IMG/VR virus record: IMGVR_UViG_3300044259_000056
Location: 10,261 to 74,260 of that record
Origin: a virus
Lineage: Duplodnaviria > Caudoviricetes
Reading direction: 5' to 3' (one strand)
Length of the DNA stretch: 64,000 nt
The translations under genes and the position numbers were made by a program. Position 1 is the first letter of the stretch. The number at the start of each line of letters is the position of its first letter. Positions 2,435 through 17,606 of this stretch are shown piece after piece. Under the pieces are notes generated by a model that worked only from the letters and a program-made list of their open reading frames with translations, searched no databases and was not told where the DNA came from.

Positions 2435-4970
2435 GTGACAGATGTTAAAACTAAGAGGACTTATAGAAAGAAATCTTCTTATTGGGAGGAGAGAAAATCT
2501 TCAGTAAGTCCTCAGTCTATAGAAAAAGCCAGTAACATGGATATGTCTACCTCAAGGTTAAGGTTGGGTGAAATTGGTTCTACTGCACTTTCAACAATTA
2601 AGTTGTACGCAGATTGGAGAAAACCTTATGATCTAAAATGGCCTGAGTGCATTAGAACCTATAATGAAATGGAGTATGATGACGATGTAGCAACAGCATT
2701 GGATGCAAGTTACACATTCGTAGAAAGGGCATTTGTTGAACCAGAAGTAGTTTATAATAAAGAATCAGAAGTCTCTATTGAGGCAGCAAGATTTTTAAAG
2801 TGGTGCCTTAATAACATGGACGACGGTATGACATTACGCTCTGCTGTTCGTTCAGCTATCACTTTTAAAAAGTATGGTTTTAGTGTCCTAGAGAAGTGTT
2901 ATACTCAAGTTACTTCTGGTGAATATGCTGGGATGTATAAGTTGCAGAAGTTAGCAACTAGGCCACAAGAAACACTGAATAAAGCAAACCCATATGTGTA
3001 TTCAGATGATGGCAGGACAGTTATTGGTATTATTCAGTCTATAAATGCAGTATCATCTACAAATGCAATAATCCCTGCATCTATTGTTGGTGATAGGTTT
3101 TTACCAAGGAAAAAATTACTTATTTTTGGTTATAACTCCACAGATTCAAATCCTTTCGGTGTTTCTCCTTTAGCTAGTATATATCAAGATTGGAAAGAAA
3201 AAGTTCTTATATCAGACTATGAAGTTGTTGGTGTTAGTAAGGACTTGGGTGGTAAACTAAGAGCTGCCTCCCTTTAATAAAACTTCCTTAACTGCTGGAA
3301 ACCCCTAAAGCTTGATTGTTCATTTCATCTATGTTACATTAAGAATGAAATAAAACAATCGAGATGCAACAATGGGCAATCAGCAGCGAAGTTCTGCTGA
3401 TCCTTGGATGAGGATCATATGAAGATAGAAATAGAAAGTAGTGGATATTATATAACAGATTCTGGAGAGGTTTATAGCAGACGTGGTAATAAACTATGTC
3501 CTGTTCTTAACCATAAAGGATATTTGACGGTTAAAATATTTTACGAAAAGGGTAAATATAAGACTAAGTTTGTTCATAGACTAGTTGCAGAAGCTTTTAT
3601 TGAAAATCCTAATAATTTGGAAACAGTCAACCATAAAAATGGTGTAAAAACAGATAATACTAAAGACAATTTAGAATGGATGAGTAGATTAGACAACACC
3701 AAACATGCAGCAAATGTATTACAGGCTCAAAAAGGTGACAAAGCAACTAATTTGACAATAAACTCTGATATAGCTAGGGAAATTTGTAAACTACTAGAGA
3801 AAGATATGCGTAATATTGATATATCTGTTCTATTAAATGTCCCCAAAAATATTGTTAGAGATATCAGAATAAGAAAAACTTGGACTCATTTATCCAAAGA
3901 ATATAAGTTTTCTATTTCAAAACATGCAAGAAATGTTAAAACTTCTAGCAGAAAATGTTCAACGACTATCGAAAGCATAGGTTAAATGAGAGATAAATAG
4001 ATTATCTTTTATTATAACTAAAGAAGCAAGTAGAGTACAGCCAAGTGGTAGGTTGCCATAGTGGAATGGCTATGGTTATAAAACCCTTTAAATGGAAACA
4101 GGAAGCATCTCTTTGAGATGAAGATATAGTCTGATCTGCATGGAAACATGCAGCAGCTTGAATAAAGCGGGGAGGGATTAACGAACCCTCCTGAACATTA
4201 TGATGCCTGTCCTTGGTGTTCCAAAAGATATCATAAATAAAGCAGCAGCAAATCCCGGTGGCGAAGAAGCTAAATCCTTGTATGTATTAGAACAAAATTT
4301 AGCTAATCTTCATGCAGGGGAACAAGCATATATTATGCTACCATCTGATCCATTTGATAATACACAAGTAAAAGAATATTCTATAGAATTTAAAGGAATT
4401 TCAGGTAGCGGTAAACAGTTTGATACTGGAAAACTTATAGAACGTAGAACTAAGGCTATTTATAATAGACTTGGTGCAGGATTCTTAATAACAGGGGATT
4501 CTGGGTCTGGTTCTTATGCATTAAGTGATAATAAACAAACTTTCCATAGTCATACTATTGAACGTGATATTGACATTACTCTAGAAGTCCTTAATAAAGA
4601 ACTAGTTCCACAGTTGCTAGCTTTGAATGGAATATATCTTGAGGATAAAGATATGCCAAAGATAAAAGCTGGAACTGTTGGTGATCCTGATGTAGAAGCT
4701 AATTCTAAGATGATTCAGCGTGTAGTTAGTGTTGGTGCTGTTCCAATGGTTCCAGAAGTTATTAATGAGTTTTTAGAAAAACTTGGATTAAGTTACAGGC
4801 TACCTGTTGATATTATCTCGGATGAGAAAGCTTATCAAGACTTTGTTAGTAAATATCTTCCTGCAAATGTCTCAAGGGCAGGCGATGGGATGAGTAAACC
4901 GGGGAATGGTACATCAAACTCTGTAGCGTCAACAGATAATTCATCTTTAAATTTGGATAATGCCTCTTGA
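2435..4970 (+). CDS. Portal protein, spliced; exons 2435-3253 and 4203-4970 (~528 aa)
   Basis: Position between terL and protease; the join gives VSKDLGG|MPVLGVP; portal-like motifs (NPFGVSPL, GSYALS). Confidence 0.9.
3280..3385 (+). repeat. 106-bp block, 101/106 identical to 15465-15570
   Basis: Direct comparison (portal intron 5' core vs tape-measure intron 2 5' core). Confidence 0.92.
3419..3985 (+). CDS. Intron-encoded HNH homing endonuclease (HNH_3 / I-HmuI-like)
   Basis: VHRLVAEAF..VNHKNGVKTDN..NLEW; SD GAGGA before ATG 3419; C-terminal HTH-like module. Confidence 0.9.
   Translation: MKIEIESSGYYITDSGEVYSRRGNKLCPVLNHKGYLTVKIFYEKGKYKTKFVHRLVAEAFIENPNNLETVNHKNGVKTDNTKDNLEWMSRLDNTKHAANVLQAQKGDKATNLTINSDIAREICKLLEKDMRNIDISVLLNVPKNIVRDIRIRKTWTHLSKEYKFSISKHARNVKTSSRKCSTTIESIG
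3958..4136 (+). repeat. 179-bp block identical to 15181-15359
   Basis: Direct base-by-base comparison (portal intron vs tape-measure intron 1). Confidence 0.95.
4121..4202 (+). repeat. 82-bp block identical to 16439-16520
   Basis: Direct comparison (portal intron 3' end vs tape-measure intron 2 3' end). Confidence 0.95.
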
Positions 4971-5127
4971 TAACTTTTGTTTTATTGTTTTTCATATTAA
5001 AATACTTTAATAAATGTTGTATTAAATAACTACAAATTTATGTTAACTGTTGACTTATATTAAATTTTATTTTAAAATAAGTAATAGGAACCCTGCTAAC
5101 ATAACAGCAGATTATATTGGAGGTCTT

Positions 5128-5583
5128 TTGTTTAACAAAGATAAACTCCTTTCTCTATTCAAAACCTTTCTTGATGAAAACATCTCTGACCAACCTACTG
5201 TTGAAATCATAAAACAATTTGATGAAGAAAAGATGGAGGCAGTTGAGGTATTATACTGCCCACCAGACCAAGCAGACCTTCATCAAGAGGCAATGACAGA
5301 AGATGAAATCGTTAAGATGGTTGATAATCTTAATGCAGCTATTAAGAAAGGTAGAGTTAAAGGAAATATTGCTCATGCTGTAAATACAGATAAGATTTAT
5401 CCTGTAGAAGCTTGGGTAAATAAAGTAGCTTGTGATATTGGTGGTAAAACCATTCCAGCAGGAATGCCACTAATTAAAATGAAGTTTACTGATAGACAGC
5501 TTTGGGAAGAAAGGAAATCAGGAAAATTAAAAGGTGTATCAATGGGTGCTCGTGGAGAAAGAGTTGAGGTAAAGAATGATTAA
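5128..5583 (+). CDS. Prohead maturation protease (XkdF-like)
   Basis: GGAGG then TTG at 5128; DLHQE, NIAH and GVSMGARG motifs; located after portal. Confidence 0.75.
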   Translation: MFNKDKLLSLFKTFLDENISDQPTVEIIKQFDEEKMEAVEVLYCPPDQADLHQEAMTEDEIVKMVDNLNAAIKKGRVKGNIAHAVNTDKIYPVEAWVNKVACDIGGKTIPAGMPLIKMKFTDRQLWEERKSGKLKGVSMGARGERVEVKND

Positions 5584-6868
5584 AAATTACCTTCAAAACG
5601 TATCCTTTGATTTTGAGGAAAATGAAGAGAGCCTTGGCCCACATATTGCATACACACTTGAATTTCAGGGTGGTGCAGCATCTGGATACAATGATCCAAT
5701 TCTCCTAAAATCAAAGAAAACTGTTATTACCAGTGAGGTGATAAAAGGTCTAAAAGAGGTAGGAATAGACACCTCTAGTTTGGAGAAATCAATGTTTCAG
5801 AGTGATCTGCGTGAACAACTACAAAGTGCTATCAGGGAAAAAGCATTTTGTGATGAATATGATTGGTGTTGGGTTTGTGATTTTAACGATGAAATAGTTG
5901 TATTCTGTAGTGATGATGGCTTATATAGTGTTGCTTATGTCATTGAGGATAATTCTGTTAAAGTTGATAATATAGCTAATCCTGTTGTCCGTTTAATTGA
6001 CTATGTTGCTGTTGATGGTGAAGTAAAAGTTAGTGAAGAAATGGAAGACAAGCTAGAACAACAAATGATGGATATGTTGAATAAAGCTAACTCCCAACCA
6101 GACCTAAAAAAATTCATTCTTAAAGCTGTCACTAAGAAAGAAGGGAATGAAAATCTTACTGCTGATAAATATGCATATACTCCAGACAAAGAAAAAGTTT
6201 CTACTTGGAAATTGCGTATTGATACTGCTGCAAACACCAGTGCTGCCGTTGCTGCATTAGGAAAAGGATTCCGTGGAAATAAAGTTAAAATCCCATCAGC
6301 AGATTTACCTGCTGTTAAAAAGAAAGTCTCTACAGCTTATAAGAAATTTTATCCAGACAAAGAATTGCCAGAGATATTGAAATCAAAAACAGAGGTTCCA
6401 GCCTCTGCAAGTAAACTAGAAAAAGGAGCCTCCGTGGATTTACAAGAACTAATGAAGAGTAATGAGTTTGCTGAACTCTTGAAAGCTGAAATTGCAAAAG
6501 CAACTGCAAACGAAGCCAAAGAAAAAGAAGAACTTCAAAAAGCTTTGAATACTGAAAAAGAACGTATTGCTGCACTGGAAGCTAAAGAAGTTGAGCGTGT
6601 TGAGAAATCACATCGTGACATTCTTAAATCTTTCTCATCTTTTATTGCCGAAGATAAAACTGAAGCACTTGTAAAAGCTTTCATGAAAGATGCAGAGACT
6701 GCTCTTGTGGTAATTGAAGTTTTAGAAAAAGCTAACTCTGTCGTTGAACAGGTTAAGAAAGAATTCGGTGCTGAGGTTGGAGTTAACGTTAAAGTTGAAG
6801 ACTCTGCTAGCCTACAAGAGAAAATCATTGCTAAAGCTAAAGCAATGAAAGAAGCCCAATCTAAATAA
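5576..6868 (+). CDS. Capsid scaffolding / head assembly protein
   Basis: Located between protease and capsid genes; acidic N-terminus and long Ala/Lys/Glu coiled-coil C-terminus. Confidence 0.7.
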   Translation: MIKNYLQNVSFDFEENEESLGPHIAYTLEFQGGAASGYNDPILLKSKKTVITSEVIKGLKEVGIDTSSLEKSMFQSDLREQLQSAIREKAFCDEYDWCWVCDFNDEIVVFCSDDGLYSVAYVIEDNSVKVDNIANPVVRLIDYVAVDGEVKVSEEMEDKLEQQMMDMLNKANSQPDLKKFILKAVTKKEGNENLTADKYAYTPDKEKVSTWKLRIDTAANTSAAVAALGKGFRGNKVKIPSADLPAVKKKVSTAYKKFYPDKELPEILKSKTEVPASASKLEKGASVDLQELMKSNEFAELLKAEIAKATANEAKEKEELQKALNTEKERIAALEAKEVERVEKSHRDILKSFSSFIAEDKTEALVKAFMKDAETALVVIEVLEKANSVVEQVKKEFGAEVGVNVKVEDSASLQEKIIAKAKAMKEAQSK

Positions 6869-10150: not shown

Positions 10151-10549
10151 TTGATAAATCTCAAAGAATATGAAGCACGTCATAGAGAGTTTATAAAAAA
10201 TTCTGGAGATATCTTTGAAAATGGATATTCATCTTATGTAGTTTATGAAGCTTTCACAATTCAAGCGTGTTCTCTCCAACCAGAAACAGGTTATACATTA
10301 AACACTATACCGGAAGGGTATAGGACAAAAGGTGTCTACTCTTTCTGGACAACAACACCAGTCAGGACGTTAGAACAAGGAACTGACCAGCTCTCAGATC
10401 AAATAAAAATAAATGGACAATGGTTCTCTATCCTAAGATCACAACCTTGGGTAGAATCTGATTTTTTACCTCACTATGATTGTATAGCAGTAAGAGAAGA
10501 CCAAAATAATTCCCCCACTCAATCACCAGAAGGTGGCAACTTTGGCTAA
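10151..10549 (+). CDS. Head-closure protein
   Basis: SLQP..LNTIPEGYR..YSFWT..DQIKING.WF..W..HY motifs; synteny. Confidence 0.65.
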   Translation: MINLKEYEARHREFIKNSGDIFENGYSSYVVYEAFTIQACSLQPETGYTLNTIPEGYRTKGVYSFWTTTPVRTLEQGTDQLSDQIKINGQWFSILRSQPWVESDFLPHYDCIAVREDQNNSPTQSPEGGNFG

Positions 10550-13897: not shown

Positions 13898-13933
13898 ATG
13901 GTTAGGTATCAACAAATCTCTACGGAGGGTGTA

Positions 13934-16900
13934 TTGGCAATTAATTTTGATGCTGCCATTATTAAAAATAAAGTGGTATATACAACAGACCTCTCATCAC
14001 TTAAAAAAGTAATGGCGGATATTAGGAAGGTTCAACAGTCAGCATCTAAATCTGTTTTAGCTTCCTCAACAATAAAACAATCAAGACAACAAGCTGAACA
14101 GACAAAACGTTGGGCATCAGAAACAATGGATGCACATGTTAAAGCTATGAACGAAGTAAGAAAATCAAAGGCATCTCAATTTCAGAAGTCATCTCAAGAT
14201 TATTTCAATGACTTATTTGGCATAGGTAAGAAAACAAAATCTGCCAGAGAGTCTGGTTATGCTTTTTTAGAACAGTTTCAGGCACAAGATGCCGCAGCAA
14301 ATGAAATAAGGAAAAGGCAAAAAGAATCTTTGAGAAGACAGACAGCAGACCAGAAGAAAATAGATGAAGCTAATATTAAAGCAACAGAAGATAGACTAAG
14401 AAGAAAAGATGTAGCGAGTTCTAAGCAATCTTTTTTTGGTTTTGAATTAGGAAAAACAAGACTCGGTGTTGATGATATGCGAGCCTATACAACACAAATG
14501 AGAAACTTATCTCAGGAGTATGTATCAGGGAGTATGTCTGTCAGACAATATAATGAATCAACACGACAATTACTTTCTACTGCAAGACAACAGAGTAAAG
14601 AGTCATTAACACTTAAAGAAAGGTTAATGAGTATTCGTGGAGAAATGGTTCTCTTTGGTGTAACTGCTGGATTTGTTATTAAAGATGTTGTAGATACAGG
14701 AAAACAATTTCAACAATTAAATTTATCTTTTGATACAGCATTTGGTAAAGATAAAGGCGAGGCAATGGATTTTGTTCGCTCAGAGGCTGATAGATTAGGT
14801 ATGAGTGTCCTTGGTGTTAGTAAGAACTATGCTCGGTTAGCTTATGGTGCTAAGTTAATGGGCATGTCACAATCAGATGTTCAGATGGGATTCTCTGGGA
14901 TATCTGAAGCAGCAACTGCTTGGGGTCTATCAAATGAGCAAGTTCAAGGGACATTTAAAGCATTTACAGATATGATCTCAAAAGGCACAGTCCAGTTAGA
15001 GGAGCTTAATGTTAGGTTCCTGAAACTTCTTTAATTGTCGGGGAAATCTTGAAAGGTATTGACTACTCTCTCTACATAGTGATATAGTAGAAAAACTCTT
15101 GGTAATGCAAGAGCTATAGTAAAAACGTCAATAATAGAGATAATCCGCAGGTAAGGTTCTTTATTTCATAAAGAACAAACTTCAACGACTATCGAAAGCA
15201 TAGGTTAAATGAGAGATAAATAGATTATCTTTTATTATAACTAAAGAAGCAAGTAGAGTACAGCCAAGTGGTAGGTTGCCATAGTGGAATGGCTATGGTT
15301 ATAAAACCCTTTAAATGGAAACAGGAAGCATCTCTTTGAGATGAAGATATAGTCTGATCCTCATATGAGAATATGAGCAGACACAAGGAAGTGTCTGTTT
15401 GTGTTTAACGAACACAAAAAACATCGGTGAAAACAACAACTCGGTTATACTATTAGCTGAGTATAAACTTCCTTAACTGCTGGAAACCCCTAAAGCTTGA
15501 TTGTTTATTTTCTATATGTTATATTAAGAATGAAATAAAACAATCGAGATGCAACAATGGGCAATCAGCAACTAAGCATCTCTCCAGAAAAGAAAGTAAG
15601 GAGAAAATATGGAATATGAAAATCTAAGCAAAAACTATAAAGTGACATCTTGTGGTTTAGTCTTTTCTTTAAGAAGAAATAAATATCTGAAGCAGTCAAT
15701 ATTTGGTGGGTATAATATAGTAAATATTGGCAAGAAGAACTATTTTGTTCATAGACTAGTTGCTATAACTTATATACCAAATCCAAGTAATCTTCCTTGT
15801 GTTAATCATAAAGATGGAAATAAGCTAAATAACCATGTAGATAACCTTGAGTGGTGCACAAGTGGATACAATCAATGTCATGCATATTTAACTGGACTAA
15901 AAAGGTTACCAAAAGGTGAAATGAATGGAAGAAGCGTTTTAACAGATTCTGAAGTTCTAAGTGTCTACGATGATCTTATGTCTGGGGCAAGAGTTAAAGA
16001 TATTTCAGAGATCTATGGTGTAGGAAAAAGCACTATAATGTCTATTAAGAAAAAAGAGTCATGGCAGCACTTATTAAAAGATAAACCAGATATAAAAATA
16101 AAGAAAAAGACACAAACCTTATCTGAAAATACTGTTATATGGATTTGTAAACAGTTGTCAGAAAATAAGACAGTTAAATGGATTTTTGATAACTGTCATA
16201 AGAATGTTACAATTAATCAAATACAAGATATAAAGAGAAGGCATTGTTTTTGTAAGATAAGTAAAGATTTCATATGGTGATGAAAGCTCAACGACTATCG
16301 AAAGCATAACTTAGGTCTTAGCCTGAGTGAGTAAGCAAGTAGAGTAGCGCCAAGTGGTAGGTGATTAAAGTGGAATGACTTTAATTATAAAACCCTTTAA
16401 AGCAAAATGGGAAGAGGTGTATAACAGATTATGCACTTAAGATATAGTCTGATCTGCATGGAAACATGCAGCAGCTTGAATAAAGCGGGGAGGGATTAAC
16501 GAACCCTCCTGAACATTATGGATCGTATGCCGGATGCAATGGCTGTGTTTGCTAAAGCATTAGACCCAGAGTCTTATGCAAAAAATCCACAGAAAGCCAT
16601 TGAAAAAATGCAAGAGACTATTAAGAAAGGTAATCTCAAGTCTCTTGAAACATTACCTAAAGTATTTAAAGTATTCCATGAAATATATGGCCCACAAGCT
16701 GAAAAAGCTATGTATGGTGTCACTCAACAACAGAACAGATTCAATAATACATTAAATGATTTCAAAAATATAATCTTTCAGTCTGGTTTAGCAAATGCAA
16801 CAGTTAGGTTATTTGGTGCACTAAACAATTTCTTGAAAGGTTCTAAGCCCTTAGCTGCATTTTTAGGTGGTATTGCACAAGGTTTTGCAGATTTACTTTA

Positions 16901-17606
16901 CTATGTAGAACTTGGTGAAGCATATTTCCTAGATTTTGCTGTTGCAATGGGTGTTTTGAATTATGAGACAGGAAAATGGAATAAAGATGTCCTTAATGCA
17001 TTTGCTGAGGTTGGTGAAGCTGCTGGCATCCTTTTTGGTTTGAAATTAATTAAATGGTTAATGGGAACTGTTACAAGTTTTAATAAATTAGGTTCAACTG
17101 TTGGTAAGTTAGGGGCTAAGTTTGGTATAGCAAGTGGTTTTGCTGTGTCACTTTTAGGGGCTATTGAAGGTATTGCTAAATTTGCAGGAAAAACTTTGCT
17201 TATTGGAATTGCATTAGATTTCTTTTCTAAAATTGGTGATCTTGAAAAAGAGGCTCAAGATAAGAATAAAAATCTTGGTGAGCTACTTTATGAGAAATCA
17301 CAACAAAAAGAGAAAGAACGTATTGCAAGAGGTGGCGCGGATGTAAGTAATTGGTGGGAAAATGTAAAAAGCTTTTTTACCCCGAATAGTGGTACTCTAA
17401 CATCTCCATCCCCTTGGGAGAACACTATGTCCTCTAATTTTAATCCCTTCCTAATGGGCATGGCAGGTGTCTCTGCACCAAAAGAAGCTTATCAACCTCC
17501 TGTTGAAATTAATCTTAACTTTAAAGGGGAAGGTCTTAAAGACTTCTGGGATGTTCAGATGAGTAATCAAGCCTCGAGTCTATATGACTTCCAGTTAAAT
17601 AAATAG
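13934..17606 (+). CDS. Tape measure protein, three exons: 13934-15006, 15430-15445, 16521-17606 (~724 aa)
   Basis: Spliced product reads KGTVQLEEL-KQQLG-DRMPDAM, the conserved tape-measure motif; TTG start after GGAGG (track start 13898 is in the same frame). Confidence 0.92.
15007..15429 (+). mobile_element. Group I intron 1 of the tape-measure gene, ORF-less, 423 nt
   Basis: P1: exon GAGCU with IGS GGUUC (U-G at the site); core AAUUGUCGGGGAA...GAUAAUCCGCAG; P7 AACGACUAUC / AAGAUAUAGUC; P9.0 CUGAU/AUCGG then UG end. Confidence 0.92.
15430..15445 (+). other. 16-nt micro-exon of the tape-measure gene (A AAA CAA CAA CTC GGT)
   Basis: Completes the Leu codon CT|A and encodes KQQLG; its last 7 nt pair with the intron 2 IGS. 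Confidence 0.9.
15446..16520 (+). mobile_element. Group I intron 2 of the tape-measure gene, carrying an HNH ORF
   Basis: P1: ACUCGGU with GCUGAGU; IA2-like core; P7 strands at ~16290 and ~16440; ends AUUAUG before GAT CGT ATG. Confidence 0.93.
15609..16280 (+). CDS. Intron-encoded HNH homing endonuclease with two C-terminal HTH-like modules
   Basis: FVHRLVAITYIPNP..VNHKDGNKLNNHVDNLEW; SD AAGGAG. Confidence 0.92.
   Translation: MEYENLSKNYKVTSCGLVFSLRRNKYLKQSIFGGYNIVNIGKKNYFVHRLVAITYIPNPSNLPCVNHKDGNKLNNHVDNLEWCTSGYNQCHAYLTGLKRLPKGEMNGRSVLTDSEVLSVYDDLMSGARVKDISEIYGVGKSTIMSIKKKESWQHLLKDKPDIKIKKKTQTLSENTVIWICKQLSENKTVKWIFDNCHKNVTINQIQDIKRRHCFCKISKDFIW

Follow-up and report, generated by a model that had tools for sequence, protein, structure and literature searches.

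The length of the tape-measure protein (TMP) sets the length of the phage tail. The tape-measure gene is often interrupted by homing-endonuclease genes, and in Vibrio phage ICP1 its transcript comprises four exons and three introns, as established by RNA sequencing, reverse-transcription PCR and Sanger sequencing (Barth et al. 2023, NAR Genom Bioinform, PMC10448857). The middle ICP1 intron usually carries an HNH-3 gene; in isolate 1992_Ind_M4 it is empty, and HNH genes are found in the first and third introns (PMC10448857). Very short exons lying between introns of group I are described for other genes too. The orf142 gene of Staphylococcus phage Twort has three group I introns, with a sometimes skipped 23-nucleotide (nt) exon between two similar IA2 introns (Landthaler & Shub 1999), and in the 23S rRNA gene of Coxiella burnetii a 34-nt exon between two group I introns is skipped in some products (Hicks et al. 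2011), both as recounted in PMC10136302. Exon skipping has been reproduced with engineered tandem Tetrahymena introns, and differing guide sequences favour exon inclusion (PMC10136302). Here we describe a locus of this kind in an uncultivated virus (Duplodnaviria; Caudoviricetes), within a 64,000-nt stretch of DNA, hereafter the window, that covers positions 10,261 to 74,260 of IMG/VR record IMGVR_UViG_3300044259_000056. In its tape-measure gene two group I introns flank a coding exon of 16 nt. We consider it very probable that the gene is transcribed as one pre-mRNA, that its two group I introns are independent of each other, that the 16-nt exon is included and that the arrangement owes its mobility to an HNH endonuclease.

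Exon sizes and ribozyme structure are absent from the text of PMC10448857, and the ICP1 intron and exon limits given here are our own reading of the DNA of isolates 2019_Dha_H (L014) and 1992_Ind_M4 (L015). In 2019_Dha_H, exon 1 ends at 3740 of L014 and is followed by a 330-nt intron without an open reading frame (ORF) at what we term site B (3741-4070), an 8-nt exon 2, GAAGAACT (4071-4078), a 1112-nt intron with an HNH gene at site 1 (4079-5190), a 16-nt exon 3, AAAAGGTCAACTGGGT (5191-5206), a 328-nt intron without an ORF at site 2 (5207-5534) and exon 4 from 5535 onwards. All three introns match the Rfam group I model RF00028, and the joined ORF is open. In 1992_Ind_M4 an empty intron of 372 nt lies at site 1, exon 3 likewise measures 16 nt and the intron at site 2 has an HNH gene. 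Introns 2 and 3 of ICP1 thus occupy the two sites that are interrupted in the window, site 1 after GAA GAA CT and site 2 after GGT, with a 16-nt exon between them. Indeed, the insertion points, after the second base of a Leu codon (site 1) and after a Gly codon (site 2), are identical in the window, 2019_Dha_H and 1992_Ind_M4. The ICP1 micro-exon AAAAGGTCAACTGGGT and that of the window, AAAACAACAACTCGGT, agree at 12 of 16 positions, and 1992_Ind_M4 shares the very layout of the window, an empty site-1 intron followed by an HNH-bearing one at site 2. The two loci differ in that the window lacks both the additional ICP1 intron 8 nt upstream (site B) and the 8-nt exon; in that the intron RNAs of ICP1 are only patchily similar to those of the window (about 65-87% over short blocks); and in that the TMPs are ~36% identical over the aligned N-terminal segment. 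The window is a new, diverged example of an ICP1-type multi-intron tape-measure locus. The earlier note on this DNA, which was drawn up from the sequence without database searches, had found such a micro-exon in a virion gene of a phage with a Gram-negative host unfamiliar. That novelty was overstated: given the precedents of ICP1, with the same sites and a 16-nt exon, and of Twort, with its 23-nt exon, the arrangement is known in kind, and in ICP1 in the same gene family of a Gram-negative-host phage.

The comparison with the remaining systems is looser. Twort orf142 is likewise a multi-intron phage gene with a very short exon between similar introns of IA2 type, but it belongs to a phage of a Gram-positive host, it is a different gene, its exon is longer (23 vs 16 nt) and skipping has been demonstrated there. 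The Coxiella case concerns a bacterial rRNA gene, in which a reading-frame constraint is absent, and its two introns belong to different subgroups. The DNA-polymerase intron of Bacillus phage SPO1, which encodes I-HmuI (PDB 1U3E), resembles the window in its HNH family and in interrupting an essential phage gene at a conserved motif; it differs in being a single intron in a replication gene. Tandem or neighbouring self-splicing introns that leave only a short stretch of exon or pseudo-exon between them, from a few nt up to 18, occur in organelles, for example in Ophiostoma cob-201 (18 nt; PMC12308204), but these mini-exons belong to fungal mitochondria, where the endonucleases are of the LAGLIDADG type and proteins assist splicing.

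All features of the locus lie on the plus strand, and the coordinates and sequences that the earlier note gave for 15007-16520 agree with the letters of the window throughout. TMP exon 1 (13898-15006) consists of 369 codons and the first two nucleotides of a Leu codon, and ends GAG GAG CT. It matches the tape-measure family PF20155 TMP_3 above the cut-off (45.3 bits vs 41; profile positions 2-110 of 192), and the gene sits after the sheath, tube and chaperone genes in the tail module, both of which identify it as the tape-measure gene. Site 1 is occupied by intron 1 (15007-15429), a group I intron of 423 nt that has no ORF and ends AUCGGUG. The micro-exon AAAACAACAACTCGGT (15430-15445) completes the Leu codon and encodes KQQLG, so that site 2 lies directly after CTC GGT. 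Intron 2 (15446-16520, 1075 nt) is a group I intron with an HNH homing-endonuclease gene (15609-16280; 672 nt, 223 amino acids), and exon 3 (16521-17606) starts GAT CGT ATG CCG and contains 361 codons and the stop. When the three exons were joined by script (13898-15006 + 15430-15445 + 16521-17606), an ORF of 2211 nt was obtained that encodes 736 amino acids without internal stops.

Only removal of both introns with retention of the 16 nt yields this product. The frame of exon 1 runs into a TAA at 15032-15034, nine codons inside intron 1; with intron 1 alone removed a stop is met five codons into intron 2, and with intron 2 alone removed the stop lies within intron 1. As the earlier note had stated, leaving out the 16 nt shifts the frame of the TMP; a stop then follows 14 codons past the junction. 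A single composite intron was rejected on the same ground of a shifted frame. Moving both sides of the intron 2 junction by +1 keeps the frame (GYRMP), but the U·G pair at the splice site is lost and a conserved acidic residue becomes Tyr; this placement was also rejected. The spliced junction, MISKGTVQLEEL-KQQLG-DRMP, restores the conserved TMP motif, as had been claimed, and aligns without gaps to uninterrupted relatives. MISKGTVQLEELKQQLGDRMP can be aligned gap-free with TMPs that are uninterrupted, namely those of Vibrio phage 1.101.O (with MLSKTKIQAEELRQQLGDRMP at this point), phiTE, PVP-SE1, BcepGomr and Ppu-503, in which the conserved EEL+QQLG motif is the part that the micro-exon encodes in the window. 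Profile matches give the same picture. Exon 1 matches phrog_2335 at 1.7e-21 up to profile position 597; exon 3 matches the same profile from position 604 (2.8e-13) and phrog_5255 at 5.1e-15, and shares ~32% identity with the phiTE and PVP-SE1 TMPs. Exactly six profile positions separate the match of exon 1 from that of exon 3 in phrog_2335 (597 vs 604), in phrog_5255 and in phrog_9807, which leaves exactly the room for LKQQLG.

Both introns have the features of group I ribozymes, namely a U·G pair at the 5' splice site, a terminal guanosine (omega-G) and a core with compensated base changes, and intron 1 also exceeds the Rfam gathering score. Intron 1 matches RF00028 over the full model (1-253) at 14997-15377 with 60.9 bits against a gathering score of 50 (E 5.5e-13), and a search of 15380-16600 at an E-value threshold returned a second match (16303-16471; 34.2 bits, E 1e-6), which covers the 3' core of intron 2. 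The earlier note had put the U-G pairs of both P1 helices at exactly the frame-preserving sites, and there they are found, as U15006·G15015 for intron 1 (in both the Rfam alignment and the minimum-energy fold) and as U15445·G15456 for intron 2 (in the minimum-energy fold). With the junction region folded alone, A15000-A15008 pair with U15013-U15021 at intron 1 (-12.9 kcal/mol), the last 7 nt of exon 1 being paired with the guide sequence of the intron, and A15439-A15447 pair with U15454-U15462 at intron 2 (-10.9 kcal/mol, z = -3.5). P1 of intron 2 was taken from folding and from covariation between exon and guide because the Rfam E-value match mis-assigns this helix. The omega-G is G15429 in intron 1 and G16520 in intron 2; these were assigned as the 3' splice sites since only they restore both the frame and the conserved residues. 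Towards the 3' ends, the P9, P9.1 and P9.2 hairpins of intron 1 fold with z = -4.96 and the terminal domain of intron 2 with z = -4.68.

Covariation supports the same folds. We aligned the 3' halves of nine introns, these being the three related introns of the window (the tape-measure pair and one in the portal gene), the DNA-polymerase intron of the Yersinia jumbo phage phiR1-37, the three of Vibrio phage 1.084.O and those of R16F and 277E43-1. J6/7-P7 and P7' are invariant in this alignment, and RNAalifold predicted 27 pairs in P7, P8, P9 and P9.2, 18 of which are compensated by two-sided changes; the P3 and P4 strands were located by eye. The peripheral hairpin for which the earlier note had reported covariation, CCATAG/CTATGG in intron 1 vs ATTAAAG/CTTTAAT in intron 2, is confirmed, and phiR1-37 carries a third version, ATTGAAG/CTTCAAT; six of the seven pairs show two-sided changes. 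The splice-site helices covary with the exons as well. At site 2 the last base of the Leu codon changes (CTC, CTG and CTT in the window, ICP1 and 1.084.O) together with the guide base (G, C and A; guides GCUGAG, GCUCAG and GCCAAG, respectively), and at site 1 exon CU goes with GG in the window, ICP1, 277E43-1 and Shewanella phage 1/40 vs UU with GA in R16F. The reading first proposed from the sequence, a coding exon of 16 nt with a group I intron on either side, is thus upheld by covariance-model matches, by covariation in P7, P8, P9 and P9.2 and by the continuity of the protein profiles.

These data suggest how the gene may be expressed. The tape-measure gene of this ICP1-related myovirus would be transcribed as one pre-mRNA with two self-splicing introns, both of the phage type of group I with P7.1/P7.2 extensions, and the window's own copies would be expected to splice in a GTP-dependent manner. 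The guide of intron 1, AGGUUCCU, would pair with exon AGGAGCU, and that of intron 2, UAGCUGAGU, with ACUCGGUUA, which consists of micro-exon positions 15439-15445 and the first two nucleotides of the intron. Each intron would be released past its own terminal G, and the three exons, once ligated, would give GAGGAGCT-AAAACAACAACTCGGT-GATCGTATG and hence the 736-amino-acid TMP with its conserved motif SKGTVQLEELKQQLGDRMP restored. The two guides differ, and by eye neither pairs with the 5' exon of the other intron. Independent splicing of the two ribozymes with the micro-exon included is most likely.

The earlier note had further argued that the 16 nt must serve both as 3' exon of one ribozyme and as 5' exon of the next, which might force an order of splicing. 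The second of these roles stands, as 15439-15445 form the 5' strand of intron 2 P1. For the first, a P10 of intron 1 looks weak, being at best AACA/UGUU with an offset of 2 nt. A forced order found no support: P1 of intron 2 takes up the final 7 nt of the micro-exon and does not overlap any plausible intron 1 P10, which would use the first few.

An alternative is that the introns often act as one unit, in which a hybrid ribozyme, or use of a distal 5' splice site, brings exons 1 and 3 straight together, so that the 16 nt are skipped and a frame-shifted, truncated N-terminal TMP arises as a by-product or a regulated product. There are precedents in the Twort and Coxiella exons and in the engineered tandem Tetrahymena introns (PMC10136302); introns 1 and 2 have identical P7 strands and compatible P3 strands, which makes a Twort-like hybrid ribozyme and some skipping conceivable. 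Skipping would, however, bring a stop 14 codons on and cost the whole C-terminal half of the protein, the two guides are specific for different 5' exons, which favours inclusion (PMC10136302), and the ICP1 homologue gives a four-exon product (PMC10448857). We therefore regard frequent skipping as unlikely. Less likely still is a truly split gene, with two proteins made from 13898-15034 and 16518-17606, a free-standing HNH gene and splicing unneeded. Both halves are open and have ATG starts, and public annotations of related phages do list separate genes, but the ATG at 16518 lacks a Shine-Dalgarno sequence, the break falls within the most conserved TMP_3 motif, covarying ribozyme cores lie on either side of it and the ICP1 homologue is spliced (PMC10448857). 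The weakest candidate is that the tandem layout is a metagenome assembly artefact over repeated intron sequence, or that intron 1 is a dead relic beside a pseudogene: the record is an uncultivated-virus contig whose introns share blocks of 179, 106 and ~66 nt, but the isolate genome of ICP1 1992_Ind_M4 likewise has an empty site-1 intron, a 16-nt exon and an HNH site-2 intron in this order, a mis-join over the 179-nt repeat would have brought together exons of the tape-measure and portal genes, which is not the case, and the core of intron 1 is complete and above the Rfam gathering score.

Some of our own observations nevertheless weigh against two independent introns with an included micro-exon and nuclease-driven mobility. 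As a single match, intron 2 falls short of the Rfam gathering score (34.2 vs 50), because the 672-nt ORF interrupts the intron. A persuasive P10 was not seen by eye for either intron, and the two introns are identical in their P7 strands (21 and 16 nt) and 84% identical over a 69-nt block. The comparative support for hitch-hiking, set out below, comes from a small and non-random sample of ten intron-bearing genes.

The ORF of intron 2 had been called an HNH gene from the sequence, and profile searches agree, with PF13392 HNH_3 at 26.3 bits (cut-off 24.8) and phrog_59 at 5.7e-45. The protein also matches I-HmuI over residues 7-102 (E 6.7e-10), including the VNHKDGNKLNN...NLEW motif. Its closest relatives are HNH proteins of site-2 introns, those of ICP1 1992_Ind_M4 (44.5% identity, the best database match) and of Vibrio phage 1.084.O (42%). 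Family membership and the comparative pattern suggest an active endonuclease with its target at this locus. In a mixed infection the I-HmuI-like enzyme would presumably nick or cut intron-less alleles near site 2, and repair from the intron-bearing genome would copy intron 2. Intron 1, which has no ORF and lies 16 nt away, would be copied alongside, since co-conversion tracts cover flanking exon sequence. The AAGGAG Shine-Dalgarno sequence of the HNH gene (15596-15611) can pair with CUCUCC at 15580-15585. A hairpin before the HNH start that sequesters it was considered and is not supported, as the region folds no better than shuffled sequence (z = -0.43).

Database searches with the locus itself returned few relatives. 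None was found for exon 1 in viral_contigs, and megablast of the locus gave the DNA-polymerase intron of phiR1-37 as its sole match. A degenerate search of viral_contigs for the intron-less junction recovered three uninterrupted tape-measure genes, 31-39% identical over the aligned part; a near-identical intron-less allele, which could show recent homing, was not found in that search.

We then compared the window with 20 relatives and rebuilt the tape-measure gene of each one that bears introns. Ten relatives are uninterrupted. In the intron-bearing genes, that of the window included, introns are found at six points along 69 nt of coding sequence, RA / LLAIQQ-AT / G-x-S / KGKIQA / EE-CT / x-KQQLG / DRMP, where slashes mark the insertion points, and every rebuilt joined ORF is open with the motif kept. 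The first position, site Y (after RA), is occupied in Shewanella phage 1/40 (193 nt, ORF-less), and the next, site M (after QQ-AT), in Vibrio phage K470 (284 nt) and Shewanella phage 1/40 (267 nt), both ORF-less. Site A, after the Ser codon, holds HNH-bearing introns in 1.084.O and qdvp001. At site B, before EEL, the introns of 1.084.O (316 nt) and ICP1 2019_Dha_H (330 nt) are ORF-less and that of 1992_Ind_M4 carries an HNH gene. Site 1 (after EE-CT) is ORF-less in the window and 1992_Ind_M4 and HNH-bearing in ICP1 2019_Dha_H, R16F, 277E43-1, K470 and Shewanella phage 1/40, and site 2 (after QLG) is HNH-bearing in the window, 1992_Ind_M4 and 1.084.O and ORF-less in ICP1 2019_Dha_H. Internal exons in this set measure 8, 16, 18, 20, 24 and 33 nt. 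The shortest is the 8-nt exon 2 of ICP1 between its group I introns (GAAGAACT; at 2027-2034 of L015 in 1992_Ind_M4).

The distribution of nuclease genes over these sites bears on the suggestion, made in the earlier note, that one nuclease could co-convert both introns and let the one without an ORF hitch-hike. The sample comprises ten intron-bearing genes, two of them from ICP1 isolates. All eight ORF-less introns share their gene with an HNH intron, as hitch-hiking by co-conversion predicts; seven of the eight lie 8-33 nt from the nearest HNH intron, and the site-Y intron of Shewanella phage 1/40 lies 53 nt away. The genes with a single intron carry an HNH gene in all three cases. HNH genes also cluster by insertion site, with those of the window, 1992_Ind_M4 and 1.084.O together (site 2) and those of R16F and 277E43-1 together (site 1). 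The comparative pattern thus fits the suggestion, while co-conversion itself we only infer. More tentatively, and with the odds somewhat against it, the 69-nt motif RA..QQM.SKG...EEL..QLG may be a six-site intron landing pad in ICP1-like and rV5-like marine phages, at which ORF-less introns persist only as obligate hitch-hikers that are co-converted with a neighbouring HNH intron. If so, the empty site-1 intron of the window would spread only through the site-2 nuclease 16 nt away.

Several of these genes are of note in themselves. Vibrio phage 1.084.O (MG592459; L007) has three unannotated group I introns within 2777-5178, of 1036 nt (HNH), 316 nt (empty) and 1008 nt (HNH), with micro-exons of 18 nt (3813-3830) and 24 nt (4147-4170), and its record lists the pieces as separate genes. 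Shewanella phage 1/40 (L022) has introns of 193, 267 and 1043 nt within 4193-5748, with internal exons of 20 and 33 nt, and K470 (L021) has introns of 284 and 1138 nt within 4243-5697, with an internal exon of 33 nt; both joined ORFs are open, and these two phages add two insertion sites upstream of the EEL motif.

Gene callers cut such a tape-measure gene into two or three 'genes', as in the public Vibrio and Shewanella phage records, and the 16-nt exon must be recognised if the real virion protein is to be predicted. As an independent and diverged instance, the window adds to a picture in which introns have settled at six positions of a single short conserved motif, with exons down to 8 nt. 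The finding leaves the known capabilities of group I introns unchanged, but the locus offers a natural system in which to study how closely spaced ribozymes avoid exon skipping, how an ORF-less intron may be spread by co-conversion with a neighbour's nuclease and how intron modules recombine within one genome.

The source record is a 74-kb uncultivated-virus contig with an estimated completeness of ~50%. Its genes follow the order terL, portal, head, sheath, tube, chaperone and tape measure, and the large terminase shares 65.6% identity with its best match among phage records, the ICP1 enzyme. The portal gene contains an intron of the same family as the tape-measure pair (3254-4202), with an HNH ORF at 3419-3985; phrog_113 continues from position 242 to 243 over the junction 3253/4203. 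This intron is a mosaic. Its positions 3280-3385 are 95% identical to the 5' part of intron 2, and 3958-4136 (179 nt) are 100% identical to the core of intron 1 at 15181-15359. By eye the last ~66 nt equal those of intron 2, a block that the computed alignment shows only within 189 nt at 83%. Such a mosaic points to recent recombination between intron copies inside one genome.

The terL gene is interrupted as well, by a small ORF-less group I intron that is unrelated to the others (659-917; RF00028 38.2 bits, E 2.9e-8). Exon 1 of terL (566-658, 31 codons) ends YGG, and exon 2 resumes at 918 with AAGGGKS of the Walker A motif; terL of ICP1 is likewise reported to be spliced (PMC10448857). The 3' half of intron 2 is 82-84% identical to the intron in the DNA polymerase gene of phiR1-37. 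There the B-family polymerase g167/g164 is split by the intron at ~2860-3240 of L005, and the annotated small ORFs g165 and g166 fall within its ribozyme.

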